A DNA stretch of 64,000 nucleotides from Patescibacteria group bacterium (GCA_041671565.1 JBAZBH010000004.1:9308-73307), one strand, 5' to 3'; positions 1 to 62,045 are shown, counted from the stretch's first letter. Notes: a model not told the origin generated them from the sequence alone. Numbers and translations: made by a program.

Positions 1-228
1 GGCGCCACAACCGCTACTTATTTGAATAAAGTCGTTAGCCGGATCATCCTGGGCGGCGCTTTATTCCTCGGTATTATTGCGGTTTTGCCGTTAACGGTCC
101 GATACCTTACCGGCATGCAGACGCTGGCAATTGGCGGCACTTCGCTTTTGATTGTGGTGTCGGTGGTGATTGAAATTGTTAAACAAGTGGAATCACAGTT
201 GACGATGCGGGACTATGAAGGATTTTAG
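1..228 (+). CDS. secY: Preprotein translocase SecY, C-terminal fragment (gene begins upstream of window)
   Basis: Translation ends ...GGTSLLIVVSVVIEIVKQVESQLTMRDYEGF, the conserved SecY C-terminus (TM10 + QxESxLxxRxYEGF). The ORF-track Met at 22 is internal. Confidence 0.7.
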   Translation, partial: GATTATYLNKVVSRIILGGALFLGIIAVLPLTVRYLTGMQTLAIGGTSLLIVVSVVIEIVKQVESQLTMRDYEGF

Positions 229-268
229 GTAGGCAGGAGGATAGGAAGTTAGGAGGTTAGGAAGATAG
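228..268. repeat. AGGAGGTTAGGA-word repeat (same family as 1187-1268)
   Basis: aggtaggcaggaggataggaagttaggaggttaggaagatagg. Confidence 0.5.
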
Positions 269-290
269 GCGCCCGAGGGGCGTTCTTTTT
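268..290 (+). terminator. Intrinsic terminator after secY (GC hairpin cgccc-gag-gggcg + T-run)
   Basis: ggcgcccgaggggcgttctttttt directly after the secY stop. Confidence 0.5.
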
Positions 291-292
291 TG

Positions 293-452
293 TAGATTTA
301 AGAATCAAGAATAAATGCCCAATGCCCAAGCTCCAATGTCCAATCAAATCCCAATGACCAATGTCCAACCCCAACGGGGTCGCTTCGGGATTACCACCTT
401 TGGTCATTGGACATTGATTGGACATTGGGATTTGGATATTGGACATTTTTAC
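293..452. repeat. CCAATG-word palindromic intergenic element (family shared with 57640-57680, 60783-60999, 61861-62045)
   Basis: aatgcccaatgcccaagctccaatgtccaat...ggtcattggacattgattggacattgggatt. Internal inverted symmetry. The ORF-track entries 315..503 and 249..455 are translations of this repeat. Confidence 0.65.
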
Positions 453-577
453 CATAGTTATTCGTTCAAGTCAGAATCATTGATATTCTTAAAATTACCC
501 TAAAATTAAACTATTTTCGCCATTTGCTTTAGAATAATTTTTTTGTTATAATAGCCTCGTTAATTAAACCAATTTTT

Positions 578-1186
578 ATGGTGTTTCTACCGTGGCAAAA
601 GAGCAATTTCTGGCAAAATGAAAAACTGCGCGAAGCGGTCGGTTTTAGCTTAGAAATCATTAAAATCGTCATTATTTCTCTGGCCATCATTTTTCCGGTG
701 CGCTATTTTCTGATTCAGCCGTTTTATGTCAAAGGCGCGTCGATGGAGCCGAATTTTTATAATCACGAGTATTTGATTATCAATGAGATTTCCTATCGGT
801 TTGAAGCGCCCGTCCGCGGCGAGATTGTGGTTTTCCGGCCGCCGAATGGGCCAGCCGGCGATTTCTTTATCAAACGGATTATTGGTTTGCCGGGCGACCG
901 GGTGGTGGTCCAAGACGGTAAAATCAAGATTTTTAACGAAACTCATCCTACTGGAGTGGTTTTAGATGAAACCCAGTATTTGGAGCGGCGGCTAGTGACC
1001 GCCGGCAATTCAGATGTGACACTCGGCGCTAATGAATATTTTGTTTGCGGCGACAACCGGCCTTCTAGCCTTGATTCACGGACTTTTGGGCCGATCAAGG
1101 CGAGCAGTATTGTCGGCAAGGTTTGGTTGCGCGGCTGGCCCTTTGACCGGGTGACGATTTTCGGAGTGCCGGCGTATAATTTATAG
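578..1186 (+). CDS. lepB: Signal peptidase I
   Basis: N-terminal TM, then GASMEPNF (Ser box), VVFRPP, FIKRIIGLPGD (Lys box), YFVCGDNRPSSLDSRTFGPI. Confidence 0.9.
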   Translation: MVFLPWQKSNFWQNEKLREAVGFSLEIIKIVIISLAIIFPVRYFLIQPFYVKGASMEPNFYNHEYLIINEISYRFEAPVRGEIVVFRPPNGPAGDFFIKRIIGLPGDRVVVQDGKIKIFNETHPTGVVLDETQYLERRLVTAGNSDVTLGANEYFVCGDNRPSSLDSRTFGPIKASSIVGKVWLRGWPFDRVTIFGVPAYNL

Positions 1187-1268
1187 GAGGTTAAGAGGAT
1201 AGGAGGTTAGGATGATAGGAGGCTTATTTTCCTATCCTCTTATCATCCTATCCTCCTAACTACCTATT
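1187..1268. repeat. AGGAGGTTAGGA-word hairpin element
   Basis: aggaggttaagaggataggaggttaggatgataggagg / cctatcctcttatcatcctatcctcctaac form a near-perfect inverted repeat between lepB and hisS. Confidence 0.65.
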
Positions 1269-1269
1269 T

Positions 1270-59580: not shown

Positions 59581-59694
59581 AAGACTCAAAAACTTCTACC
59601 ATTTTAGATGAATATAGGGCAAAAGTCAACTTTATCCTTTGACAGTTTAGTAAATTTAGATTAGACTGATAACTGAATTAAGCTATTTTAACCG

Positions 59695-59778
59695 GCCGAA
59701 GTGGCGGAATTGGCAGACGCGCACGACTCAAAATCGTGTGGGGTTTACTCCATGAGGGTTCGATTCCCTCCTTCGGCA
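59695..59778 (+). tRNA. tRNA-Leu (CAA), long variable arm
   Basis: Acceptor gccgaag/cttcggc, anticodon loop ctCAAaa, variable arm gggtttactccatg, T arm gaggg-ttcgatt-ccctc. Confidence 0.85.
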
Positions 59779-59858
59779 TTTAAAAAATTGGTTTAGATTC
59801 TTGCTTTTTTCCAAAAAAGAGAATATAGTATAATCCTCTATTAAATATCGCGGGGTAG

Positions 59859-59935
59859 AGCAGTCTGGCAGCTCGTCGGGCTCATAACCCGAAGGTCGTC
59901 GGTTCAAATCCGACCCCCGCAACCAAGAAACTATT
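59859..59935 (+). tRNA. Initiator tRNA-fMet (CAT), CCA encoded
   Basis: C1xA72 mismatch; three G-C pairs in the anticodon stem (tcgggctCATaacccga); tataat box at 59840. Confidence 0.8.
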
Positions 59936-60017
59936 TTTGAATAAAAAGTAGTTTTTTGTTTGAAAAAATGTTATAATTAAGCCACGCGTTAATATAAAGG
60001 TTAGGTTTAATTAAGGT

Positions 60018-60782
60018 ATGGCGAGAGTAATTTCCATTGTTAATCAGAAAGGCGGAGTGGGGAAGACCACGACCGCGGTGAATCTGGCGGCTTATCTCGC
60101 TAAATACGGCCGCAATGTTTTGCTGGTTGATATGGATCCGCAGGCGAACGCCACTTCGGGCCTAGGAATCGACCATCAGACTTTGCCCTATGGCATTTAT
60201 GAGGTAATTGCCGGTCTGCAGCCTTTGCGCCAAGTGGTGGTGGGCACAGCGCACGCGGGGCTAAAAGTGGCGCCGGCGACGATTTCGCTTGCTGGGGCGA
60301 GTGTGGAACTGGTTAATGAAGCGGAAAGGGAATTTAAGCTTTATCGCGCTCTTTTGGAAGGGGCCGGGGCTTATGATTATATTTTAGTTGACTGTCCGCC
60401 GTCACTCGGTTTAATCACGATTAACAGCTTAACCGCCGGCGATGAAGTGCTGATTCCGGTCCAAGCCGAGTATTACGCCCTAGAAGGACTGGGTCAGCTT
60501 TTAAACACTATTAATTTAGTCAAAGAGAATTTAAAGCCGAATTTAAATATCTTGGGCGCGGTGTTGACCATGTATGACCGCCGCAACAAACTGTCCAATG
60601 AAGTGATGGAACAGCTTTACCAGTATTTTCCTAACCGAATTTTCCGTTCCGTGATTCCGCGGGTGGTGCAACTGGCGGAAGCGCCGTCGCACGGTAAATC
60701 AATTTTGCATTATCGGCCGTTGTCGCGCGGCGCTTGGGCCTATGACCGGCTGGCAAGGGAAGTGATGGCAACGGAAAAATAG
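60018..60782 (+). CDS. parA: Chromosome partitioning ATPase ParA/Soj
   Basis: ISIVNQKGGVGKTTTAVNLAA deviant Walker A. Confidence 0.9.
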   Translation: MARVISIVNQKGGVGKTTTAVNLAAYLAKYGRNVLLVDMDPQANATSGLGIDHQTLPYGIYEVIAGLQPLRQVVVGTAHAGLKVAPATISLAGASVELVNEAEREFKLYRALLEGAGAYDYILVDCPPSLGLITINSLTAGDEVLIPVQAEYYALEGLGQLLNTINLVKENLKPNLNILGAVLTMYDRRNKLSNEVMEQLYQYFPNRIFRSVIPRVVQLAEAPSHGKSILHYRPLSRGAWAYDRLAREVMATEK

Positions 60783-60999
60783 ATTTAAGAATTAAGATTT
60801 AGGATTTAAGAATGCCGGTCATTAGAGTTTAAACTATAAACCTAGTTAAAAATGTCCAATATCCAAATCCCAATATCCAATCAATGTCCAATGACTAAAG
60901 GTGGTAATTGGACATTGGTCATTGGGATTTGATCGGTCATTGGAGCTTGGGCATTGGGCATTTATTCTTAAATCTTAAATCTTAAATCTACTTAAAAAT
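60783..60999. repeat. CCAATG-word palindromic element flanked by TTAAGAATC / TTAAATC-word arms
   Basis: aatgtccaatatccaaatcccaatatccaatcaatgtccaatgactaaaggtggtaattggacattggtcattgggatttgatcggtcattggagcttgggcattgggcatttattcttaaatcttaaatcttaaatc. Confidence 0.65.
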
Positions 61000-61860
61000 A
61001 TGTCTCTCGGCCGCGGTCTAGATTCACTTATTCCCAAAAAGATTGTTTTGCCGTCCTCGCCTTCGCCTGACAAACCGGACGAAACCGTGGGCGGGGAGCG
61101 GATTTTGCAATTGGCGCCGAGCCAGATCGCGGTTAATCCGCACCAGCCGCGGCAGGAGTTTGGCCATGCTGACCTGGAAGAGCTGATTAATTCCATTAAG
61201 GAACACGGCATTCTGCAACCATTAATTGTGACTAAAGTTGGCAACGGCTATGAATTAATTGCCGGGGAGCGGCGGCTGCGCGCGGCCAAAGTTTTGGAAT
61301 TGGGGGCGGTGCCGGCGATTGTCCGTGAAGCGAGTGAAAACGAGAAACTGGAACTGGCGATTATTGAGAATATCCAGCGCAAAAATCTTAATCCAATCGA
61401 AGAGGCAGTGGCTTACCGGCGGCTAATGGAAGAGTTTTCCCTGACCCAAGAAGAAACTGCCAAGAAAGTCAGCAAGTCGCGGGCGGCCGTCGCCAATGTT
61501 CTCCGACTTTTAGATTTACCAGCCGAAGTGCAGGAGGCGATTTCCCAGGAAAAAATCTCTGAGGGCCACGCCAAAATCCTCGCCGGCATTAATGATCCGG
61601 CCGAGCAACTGAAATTTTTCAAAAAAATTGTTGAGGAAAAGCTTAATGTCCAGGATACCGCCACTGTCGTCCGGGCAACCAAACCGGGCAAAGCGGCGAA
61701 ACCTTTGGCCTTGCCCGACGCGGAAACTCTTGCCCAAGAAGAAACGCTCCGCGGCAAATTGGGGACTAAAGTAAAAATCGAGAAGCAGGGCGGGCGGGGC
61801 AAGATAATTGTAGAATTTTATTCAGAGGAGGAGTTGAGGGGGTTGATAGAAAGGATTTAG
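61000..61860 (+). CDS. parB: Chromosome partitioning protein ParB/Spo0J
   Basis: GILQPLIV, LIAGERRLRAAK ParB boxes; HTH; C-terminal dimerisation region. Confidence 0.9.
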   Translation: MSLGRGLDSLIPKKIVLPSSPSPDKPDETVGGERILQLAPSQIAVNPHQPRQEFGHADLEELINSIKEHGILQPLIVTKVGNGYELIAGERRLRAAKVLELGAVPAIVREASENEKLELAIIENIQRKNLNPIEEAVAYRRLMEEFSLTQEETAKKVSKSRAAVANVLRLLDLPAEVQEAISQEKISEGHAKILAGINDPAEQLKFFKKIVEEKLNVQDTATVVRATKPGKAAKPLALPDAETLAQEETLRGKLGTKVKIEKQGGRGKIIVEFYSEEELRGLIERI

Positions 61861-62045
61861 GATTTAAGAATAAATGCCCAATGACCAAGCTCCAATGACC
61901 AATCAATGTCCAATGACTAATGTCCAATAACCGACTTTTGGCATTTGGCATTGATTGGACATTGGGATTTGGAAATTGGACATTTTTAACTAGGTTTATG
62001 GTTTAAACGCGAACTGCCGGCATTCTTAAATTCTAAATCTTAAAT
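61861..62045. repeat. CCAATG-word palindromic element (near-copy of 293-452)
   Basis: ggatttaagaataaatgcccaatgaccaagctccaatgaccaatcaatgtccaatgactaatgtccaat...attgattggacattgggatttggaaattggacattttta. Confidence 0.65.

Follow-up and report, generated by a model that had tools for sequence, protein, structure and literature searches.

Word-built palindromes in the intergenic spacers of a Patescibacteria group bacterium and their likeness to REPINs, MITEs and heptamer repeats

Three described kinds of intergenic repeat lie closest to the elements considered here: the repetitive extragenic palindromic (REP) sequences of Enterobacteria and Pseudomonas with their hairpin-forming doublets (REPINs) and REP-associated tyrosine transposases (RAYTs); the heptamer repeats, such as the cyanobacterial short tandemly repeated repetitive (STRR) and TAACTGA-type sequences; and miniature inverted-repeat transposable elements (MITEs). 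Intergenic heptamer repeats occur in Beggiatoaceae, Cyanobacteria and Bacteroidetes, including positions before the start codons of a Beggiatoaceae genome poor in Shine–Dalgarno (SD) sequences, and in the BOGUAY genome one inverted set is found among 170 (PMC4679880). The candidate phyla radiation (CPR) contains the phyla in which perfect inverted repeats are densest in a published census, the relevant passages of which give density by phylum, without word-built arms, families, nesting or turnover (10.1101/2024.09.29.615628; PMC13155455), and our literature searches returned no description of word-built palindromes in CPR. Here we describe a 64,000-nt stretch of a Patescibacteria group bacterium (GCA_041671565.1 JBAZBH010000004.1:9308-73307; hereafter the window) that holds 19 intergenic elements made of degenerate tandem 7- or 8-nt words; 14 are imperfect palindromes of some length, and the other 5 are arrays with a single arm. 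Their behaviour is like that of REPINs or MITEs and their words are like those of heptamer repeats, and they differ from both in their paired palindromes, composite nesting and several families. The best explanation, in which we place about as much belief as doubt, is that these 'word palindromes' are multi-family, non-autonomous, self-complementary intergenic repeats that are dispersed and nest within one another in a REPIN/MITE-like manner.

Like the elements of REP/REPIN–RAYT systems, the word palindromes are extragenic, fold two inverted arms into a long hairpin, are found both as doublets and as single arms left by decay, belong to several families per genome and sit at gene ends and in operon interiors, in a genome that contains a RAYT-like gene. 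A REP arm, however, is a sequence of 20–35 nt that is itself a stem-loop, whereas here it is a run of tandem 7–8-nt words; the copies here are also diverged, few per family in the DNA sampled and nested, and the RAYT-like gene has a different hairpin. With STRR and TAACTGA-type heptamers they share a period of 7 (in some cases 8), a strictly intergenic location, ends near starts in SD-poor contexts, variability between close relatives and a tendency to break assemblies. STRR2, which we take to be TTGGTCA, would match the right-arm word here. The Nostoc words ttgttagttgttag, attgcgaattgcgaattg and taggggtgtaggggt, as given in PMC2408588, resemble TTGTTAGG, GCGAATG and TAGGnnGn of the window. 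Heptamer repeats are described as direct arrays, whereas here 14 of 19 are paired with an inverted copy into palindromes of 75–220 nt, and composite nested units are copied whole. The likeness to MITEs lies in size (80–220 nt), non-coding character, terminal inverted repeats, dispersal in both orientations, presence/absence polymorphism and the many ends that are compatible with a TA flank (TA/G...C/TA). The elements differ from MITEs in that a target-site duplication would be inseparable from the palindrome and in that the inverted repeat is the whole arm, itself repetitive; no parent insertion sequence or DDE transposase was seen in the window.

The elements total 2,336 nt, which is 30 per cent of the non-coding DNA of the window. 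An inverted-repeat scan returned palindromes with arms of 26–71 nt and complementarity of 77–97 per cent at 313-448, 1183-1267, 28440-28641, 30965-31090, 34476-34647, 36194-36279, 36689-36756, 57604-57819, 60777-60993 and 61872-61985, and Tandem Repeats Finder (TRF) independently called period-7/8 arrays inside those same arms, with period 7 at 14 loci (arrays of 3–9 copies) and period 8 at 8. Long inverted repeats number 16 in the window against 0–2 per shuffle in five block shuffles. When eight elements were folded as single-stranded DNA, each against 200 dinucleotide shuffles, z ranged from -4.4 to -11.5 and 0/200 shuffles folded as well. Tandem arrays were counted at period 7 or 8 with at least 3 copies, and 29 of 30 lie in non-coding DNA (binomial p = 8e-26). 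Their density per 100 kb is 46.9 in the window, 18.9 in Patescibacteria loci and 5.7 in other loci (among the loci fetched), and from these sequences the word palindromes appear to be a lineage-wide class, present in relatives as well.

An earlier note on this DNA had listed six families filling nearly every gap between genes. All six were recovered in place by the inverted-repeat scan and TRF, but the AGGAGG and TAGGTNGT sets prove to be one 8-nt TAGGnnGn superfamily (direct-repeat families D7, D9 and D10), and of the 35 spacers that measure 40 nt or more, 18 hold an element, or about half. Four elements were missing from that list (35313-35396, 43574-43606, 51957-52049 and 53985-54058). It had also named an artefact of assembly as a possible refutation; this reading was rejected, since four assemblies agree, the elements being reproduced at 99.6–100 per cent identity in contigs from ERZ27249449, SRR6484324 and SRR18595301. 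Short-read contigs stop inside the elements, as is expected of repeats. In the near-identical strains L082-L088 the elements are identical to those of the window, and these strains are therefore uninformative on recent gain or loss.

Words of 7 nt are CCAATGN, GAATCAN/AAGATTT, GTTCAAA, GATAGCC and GGTATAT, and words of 8 nt are TAGGnnGn and TTAAAACA; the families are CCAATGN, AAGATTN/GAATCAN, GTTCAAA, TAGGnnGn and (G)CGAATN. The arms are genuine inverted copies, the order of word variants being mirrored from one to the other, as at 30965-30995 and 31060-31090 (97 per cent over a non-repeating order), and a 31-nt arm of non-repeating word order is common to three loci. Some members of the TAGG family enclose a GC-rich core hairpin. 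Several elements are composite: between outer arms of AAGAAT/AAGATT words they hold a spacer that is not palindromic, together with an inner palindrome written in different words.

Whole composite units are copied to other spacers in either orientation. Copy A (293..500, + strand; identified from an inverted repeat, copy alignments and TRF period 7) has outer AAGAATN words and, within them, a CCAATGN palindrome whose arms are 313-361 and 400-448 and whose apex carries 22 additional nt (~368-389); the shared spacer and degenerate right outer words come next. Copy B (61861..62051, + strand, parB–pth spacer; inverted repeat, copy alignments, z = -6.8) and copy C (60783..60999, - strand, parA–parB spacer; inverted repeats, alignments with A, B and L091) border parB in opposite orientations. 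Copies A, B and C align end to end with L089a and L090a over ~190 nt, including the non-palindromic spacer and in both orientations. Copy D (57606..57819, + strand, scpA–scpB spacer; inverted repeat, alignment with copy E) consists of outer GAATCAN/CTTAATT words, a brief run of CCAATG, a core of ATACCAT words and, at 57768-57783, a GC hairpin; copy E (28438..28641, - strand; inverted repeat, alignment with copy D, TRF period 7), which lies between convergent genes, combines GAATCAN words on the outside with a core of GGTATAT words, is the inverse of copy D and has its core in common with it.

The same families are repeated beyond the window, against the other refutation that the earlier note had named. 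A metagenome scan for sister copies with the junction motif AAGARTAAATGCCCAATGNCCAA gave two more contigs, L089 and L090, from the sample that also yielded L001 and in which this strain is present, and these have no coding sequence in common with the window; they carry 5 CCAATG elements, 2 GTTCAAA elements, a perfect 40-bp CGAAT hairpin and 2 AGGAGG arrays. Family comparisons covered 88 kb in all, within which each family has 2–8 copies at 74–92 per cent identity, the best pair anywhere reaching 92 per cent. Thus the REP/MITE-like, dispersed and extragenic character that the earlier note had proposed is borne out by the ~190-nt copies in both orientations and by presence and absence between genomes, but its near-identity over more than 100 bp is not (293-452 against 61861-62045 gives 80–88 per cent, with a 22-nt apex indel), nor is recent spread, copies differing by 8–26 per cent where co-occurring strains differ by ≤0.4 per cent. 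In a five-copy CCAATG alignment pairing holds in 86 per cent of cells; mismatches lie at the degenerate seventh word position and are the same in every copy, and compensatory changes do not exceed those of shuffles, with one double change in both. Common mismatches without compensation are the mark of a master sequence that was copied, and not of pairing kept by selection or conversion.

From one related genome to another, elements have been acquired, have gone missing or have given way to different ones, and some survive as one arm. Where the window has a filled spacer, the counterpart in relatives is about 0–30 nt long or holds a smaller hairpin. Between hisS and the HIT gene the window has a 197-nt stretch (2665-2861) where a BLAST alignment gives L001 7 nt, and this stretch holds a GCGAATG/CTACGAAT-word palindrome (2665..2797, z = -4.7). 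L001 equals the window up to position 2366 and is then 5–10 per cent diverged (window 2367-3067). Substitution clusters in L082 and L086 (for example 49916-50195) are patchy in the same way, and such divergence points to recombination among strains that live together, or else to a chimeric assembly. The longest HIT ORF (open reading frame) starts at 2798 within the repeat spacer, whereas the L001 alignment puts the real start at 2864; gene callers likely over-extend ORFs into word elements. Between ORF 30409-30918 and a VirD4-like gene (ORF 31108-33792) the window has 189 nt and L095 2 nt, the window spacer being taken up by a GCGAATG-family palindrome (30950..31100; arms 30965-30995/31060-31090, 97 per cent complementary, z = -7.7). 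The spacer 3' of ORF 33833-34444 is 223 nt in the window against 32 nt in L095, and holds a GTTCAAA 7-nt-word palindrome (34476..34647; inverted repeat, z = -9.1) with relatives at L089 7097-7227 (90 per cent, BLAST) and L090 2721-3091, where the GTTCAAA palindrome is nested in the same AAGAAT outer arms as the composites.

Between scpA and scpB the 214 nt of copy D stand against 0–10 nt or an overlap in L004, L005 and L010; in this spacer L091 has CTTACAG words in direct order over 58 nt, and L093 a 106-nt ATTGNNN hairpin. Between ORF 55822-56115 and a gene with a tRNA_edit domain ('YbaK-like') the window has a TAGG 8-mer hairpin of TAGGTTGT words with a GC core GCGGCTCCGCCGAAGGCGGAGCCGC (56116..56213, z = -7.6), L091 an AAGATTC hairpin and L093 an AAGATTT hairpin. 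Between parA and parB the window has 217 nt (copy C) and L091 an 82-nt AAGATTT hairpin whose arms align with the outer AAGATTT arms of copy C; where the L091-type hairpin has its loop, copy C has a clean 147-nt extra that comprises the CCAATG palindrome and the shared spacer, and L003 retains the right arm alone, nearly unchanged. From these comparisons it follows that elements nest at apices, are replaced and decay to single arms. Runs of N in relatives' loci were considered as masked similar elements and rejected, most being 100-N scaffold gaps with duplicated flanks.

By its genes the window is from a Falkowbacteria-like CPR (Patescibacteria) bacterium. Among species-representative genomes ParB is best matched in L002, a Patescibacteria metagenome-assembled genome (76 per cent identity), and L003, a Candidatus Falkowbacteria (73 per cent). 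Non-coding DNA makes up 12.2 per cent of the window and almost all genes lie on the + strand; they include secY, lepB, hisS, a type IV secretion system (T4SS)-pilin/Big_5 protein, a 4177-aa repeat protein, ftsA/ftsZ, cysS, dus, adk, map, ruvX, recO, scpAB, parAB and pth. A Shine–Dalgarno sequence is recognisable at 3 of 46 starts only (28029, 46116 and 55822), the others being preceded by A/T-rich runs.

Most elements span from 0–7 nt after a stop codon to 1–10 nt before the next start. A promoter would not fit in what remains, and therefore transcription of ruvX, recO, scpB, parB and pth must pass through the elements. Of 12 hairpins that lie between co-directional genes, about 8 have a stem base within 10 nt of both stop and start codon. 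TAG stops before elements are not significantly enriched (10/17 against 11/33, p = 0.13). The idea that the elements act as bidirectional terminators is not supported: terminator-like sites are not enriched (21 against 19.7 expected and 17 against 18.6 expected), a T-tract is absent from most, and terminator criteria are met only by the core of copy D (57768-57783) and by the hairpin after 226-269. The classical intrinsic terminator was rejected on these grounds and because the elements abut the next start. Nor are the elements strand-specific RNA structures: folding shows no bias for the transcribed strand (summed energy -817 kcal/mol on the + strand and -849 on the - strand; 58 against 55 G-U pairs), and such asymmetry as there is tracks element orientation within families because of shared ancestry. 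In an Rfam scan of the whole window the gathering score was reached by four tRNAs only.

If the elements are dispersed repeats, as we favour, then the intermediate in their propagation would be a hairpin of single-stranded DNA or a cruciform. Its targets would be AT-rich spacers of short length and the loops of hairpins, many ends having the form (G/A)TAG...CTA(C), and the length of an arm would change by slippage of one word; as to the mobilising enzyme, the RAYT-like Y1 protein is only a candidate. Elements within operons would be read through as part of the polycistronic RNA, in which the folded stem would bring the upstream stop and the downstream start within ~10 nt of each other across its base. 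This would explain why large inserts are tolerated inside operons, and with so few genes preceded by a Shine–Dalgarno sequence the closeness of stop and start may preserve coupling. A few elements may have gained function, for example the AAGATTT hairpin that three related genomes share upstream of parB.

Several observations weigh against this explanation. Neither a transposition event nor a target-site duplication is defined by the comparisons, and no empty site is clean, the sole one (in L001) lying in a patch of ~10 per cent divergence. The copies are old (74–92 per cent) and few per family in the 88 kb, whereas classical REPIN populations consist of many near-identical copies. Domain scans of ORFs found no transposase in the window besides the RAYT-like gene. 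Three genomes retain a hairpin upstream of the YbaK-like gene despite differing words, and the right arm upstream of parB (ATTCTTAAATCTTAAATC) has hardly changed among three genomes with ParB proteins that are 73–76 per cent identical; this persistence and this conservation favour function or evolution in place over selfish spread. Finally, 7 IMG/VR contigs have TCTTAAA arrays, in direct form and unrelated contexts, so that words shared across taxa can be low-complexity convergence; the TACGAAT pattern had no match in IMG/VR viral contigs.

It is conceivable, although we think it rather unlikely, that the elements are functional RNA hairpins that evolve in place, serving processing, stability, translational coupling or as atypical terminators, with words arising by slippage and likeness by convergence or gene conversion. 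Beyond the hairpin that the window, L091 and L093 hold upstream of the YbaK-like gene and the conserved parB-proximal arm, a heptamer array or hairpin lies just upstream of parB in L002, L003, L004, L014, L017, L019-L022, L030 and L091; elements begin at a stop codon and finish at a start codon; and near absence of Shine–Dalgarno sequences goes with heptamers before starts in the Beggiatoaceae genome as well (PMC4679880). Function in place would not be expected to leave the transcribed strand without folding or G-U bias, compensatory changes without excess across five copies, T-tracts absent and terminators unenriched. Neither does it sit well with homologous 190-nt copies, non-palindromic spacer included, at unrelated loci in both orientations, or with nearer and farther relatives that have 0–10 nt at the same spacers.

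A narrower form of mobility, which we consider unlikely, is that the elements are strict REPINs moved in trans by the product of ORF 26346-26900, a RAYT-like Y1 (HUH) transposase that would recognise GTAG and a hairpin on single-stranded DNA. The earlier note had pointed to a RAYT-type gene in the window, and a RAYT-like ORF is indeed there, with the HUH motif HIH and YYDHII; it scores 27.2 bits against Pfam Y1_Tnp (cut-off 23) and 55.6 bits against NCBIfam REP_Tyr_transpos (NF047646), the latter under the cut-off of 80. The suggested association with the word palindromes is unsupported. The gene has no word palindromes at its flanks, its upstream spacer (26299-26345) holding only GAGACGCGCCGCGGCGCGTCTC and the downstream gene overlapping the ORF, and the RAYT-like genes of L095 and L097 likewise have tight flanks without them. 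The gene, seemingly single-copy, has a 62 per cent identical homologue in L095 that stands in the same cysS–RAYT–dus order, in a genome that also has word hairpins; further homologues occur in Fischerella, Marinifilum and Anaerolineales. From its sequence and synteny the gene looks domesticated and vertically inherited, as has been described for RAYTs, and a link to REPINs is established only for RAYT groups 2 and 3 (PMC5581495).

What accompanies the gene is a hairpin of a different kind. The 22-nt GAGACGCGCCGCGGCGCGTCTC occurs exactly twice in 64 kb (0.01 expected), at 26311-26332 upstream and at 26631-26652 within the ORF, ~320 nt downstream, and nowhere away from the gene; this hairpin (GTAGAGACGC...GCGTCTCTAC) is GC-rich, begins with GTAG and is not built of words. 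The intragenic copy encodes VETRRGAS or VETHCNASLQ (VETRRGAS in the window). The arrangement of two hairpins recurs in L095 (5988-6009 and 6310-6331) and in Marinifilum L098 (3920-3941 and 4295-4316), L097 has the internal hairpin (6292-6313) and L093 at least one dispersed copy of the motif, while the hairpin was not found in L089 or L090. Within a genome the two copies match exactly or almost so, and between genomes they are different, so that their evolution is concerted. Because the same type goes with the homologues of L095, L097 and L098, and L093 has it dispersed, the GTAG-led GC-rich hairpin is the cognate REP of this protein family, and it differs in kind from the word palindromes. 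GTAG does adjoin the outermost arm at 7 of 28 hairpin ends (a post hoc count; ~0.4/28 expected), three of these being of the AAGATTT family with GTAG outside the word; but the AAGATTT hairpins of relatives are without GTAG, and many more ends read ATAG or TAG...CTA. Such ends could mimic a RAYT substrate and could equally reflect a TA target duplication or palindrome extension that doubles as a stop codon. Word arms are not self-complementary singly, the hairpin forming only from the pair of arms.

More speculatively, and with a lower probability again, heptamer-word hairpins might be a conserved functional device of SD-poor CPR bacteria, one that places stop beside start for re-initiation or coupling across 80–220 nt or offers a platform to a protein that reads 7-nt units; this would be the same phenomenon as the heptamers of cyanobacteria, Beggiatoaceae and Bacteroidetes, and would possibly be made or maintained by a domesticated RAYT-like Y1 family.

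It is improbable that the elements are an immobile and functionless by-product of mutation, in which slippage makes arrays, template switching makes palindromes and both are tolerated only in spacers. Such an origin would fit the one-armed arrays at 226-269, 27895-27960, 43574-43606 and 56775-56835 and those outside the window (L090 12876-12944 and L091 9943-10000), as well as the degeneracy of the words, the indels in 7-nt steps reported for heptamer repeats elsewhere (PMC4679880) and the similar arrays in unrelated contigs. It leaves unexplained the multi-part 190-nt copies with common mismatches and a non-repetitive spacer at distant loci, and the 31-nt arm of non-repeating order at three loci.

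We give next to no credence to an assembly artefact of low-complexity sequence or to a guide array like those of TIGR or CRISPR, for although short-read contigs break in elements and TIGR arrays (~36-nt units with two alternating 8–12-nt repeats and 9-nt spacers, 5–15 times, beside a Nop-domain gene) are reported in parasitic bacteria (PMC12045711), four assemblies agree and the elements have a period of 7–8 nt without spacers, lie scattered among housekeeping genes and come with no Nop domain in the scanned ORFs. Integron attC sites were rejected on the syntenic housekeeping neighbours (hisS, ruvX, recO, scpAB, parAB and pth) and the lack of an integrase in the scanned ORFs, R and L boxes not having been searched.

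It is striking that a tightly packed, small CPR genome should give ~30 per cent of its non-coding DNA to hairpin repeats within operons of essential genes. If the word palindromes are mobile, they show selfish DNA persisting in a streamlined genome, the folded element leaving stop and start effectively adjacent; if they are functional, they represent an unrecognised intercistronic layer of control in organisms that mostly lack Shine–Dalgarno sequences. In either case the unexplained heptamer repeats of cyanobacteria and sulfur bacteria are linked to a third and very distant lineage. A practical consequence is that short-read assemblies of CPR break at predictable places and that gene callers run ORFs into the elements.

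The remaining elements are simpler than the composites. Within the TAGGnnGn superfamily, a one-armed array of TAGGnnGn/AGGAGGAT words (226..269; TRF period 8/16, direct-repeat family D9) opens with the stop TAG of secY and is followed at ~267-291 by a GC hairpin with a T-run. A TAGGAGGN 8-nt-word palindrome (1183..1269; arms 1183-1220 and 1230-1267, z = -5.1, identical in L001) occupies the entire lepB–hisS spacer, from the stop TAG through to the ATG. The map–ruvX spacer is occupied by a TAGGTTGN 8-nt-word palindrome with a GC-rich core hairpin GCGCCGCCTGCGGCGGCGC (36162..36291, z = -11.5), and the ruvX–recO spacer by a TAGGTCGT-word palindrome (36685..36760, z = -4.4) that runs from 3 nt past the stop to 3 nt short of the ATG. 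A one-armed CTAACTAC array of 5.6 copies of 8 nt, C-rich and G-free on the + strand (56775..56835; TRF, family D7), lies between the YbaK-like gene and scpA, which overlap or abut in L091 and L093.

The GCGATGCGAATNCTACGAATTACATGCGAAT arm stands alone at 27895..27960, where 29–30 of 31 bases match the arms of 30965-31090 in a comparison by eye. A 14-nt-word hairpin with 2.1 copies of GTATTCAGGGAACA (35313..35396; z = -3.1, TRF period 14) is the weakest of the set. A one-armed GATAGCC array of 4.7 copies of 7 nt (43574..43606, TRF) begins at a stop TAG, and a TTAAAACA-word 8-nt palindrome in the Nudix–Nramp spacer (51957..52049; inverted repeats, TRF) has a left arm that runs into the final codons of the Nudix gene. 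An element of AAGATTT/TCTTAAA words with a short left and a long right arm (53985..54058; direct-repeat families D16 and D18, TRF) stops 6 nt before an ATG.

The window has other features of note. A structured non-coding segment of ~480 nt occurs at 24406-24888, 3' of ftsZ, and at 48553-49047, 3' of an ABC-transporter gene, the two having blocks in common (TTAGATAGCGGAGTAACG..., CTTTCTGTGACCAGAAAGTA and TCTTTTGAATAAAAGACACTGTAGAG); a third copy is at L090 10396-10679 (90–95 per cent identical) and possibly another at L091 19769-20395. An Rfam search of 24380-24900 at E <= 1 returned nothing but a chance CRISPR direct-repeat (CRISPR-DR) match. A separate, classical MITE-like element at 4003-4196 has terminal inverted repeats of ~24 nt (TGAGATGGTTACAAAA...TTTTGTAACCATCTCA) with ~130 nt between (z = -11), and relatives in L003 (Falkowbacteria) at 965-1160 and 4450-4625. 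The 4177-aa ORF at 6549-19082 has two repeat blocks (14850-15680 and 18120-19000) with units of ~123–132 nt (~42 aa), and three ORFs with TSP3 repeats come after it.

Two tRNA loci are also unusual. tRNA-Asn (37807-37879) is apparently enclosed by another tRNA-like sequence (~37740-37930), whose 5' half (GCTCTGGGGTAGTTTAATGGTAAAACGCCTGGCTG...) and 3' half (...GGGCGTTCGATTCCTCCCCCCAGAGC) pair around it and which ARAGORN did not call. Beside tRNA-Asn is a low-GC island (GC 0.32, 37968-40184) that encodes a 738-aa protein with DndB-like and Swt1-type HEPN domains and that, with a nearby Mrr-type restriction endonuclease gene (43644-44984), is probably a defence island. At 59477-59570, adjoining tRNA-Met (59400-59476, - strand), a partial second tRNA-Met copy interrupted by a GC-rich hairpin looks like the remnant of an integration site.

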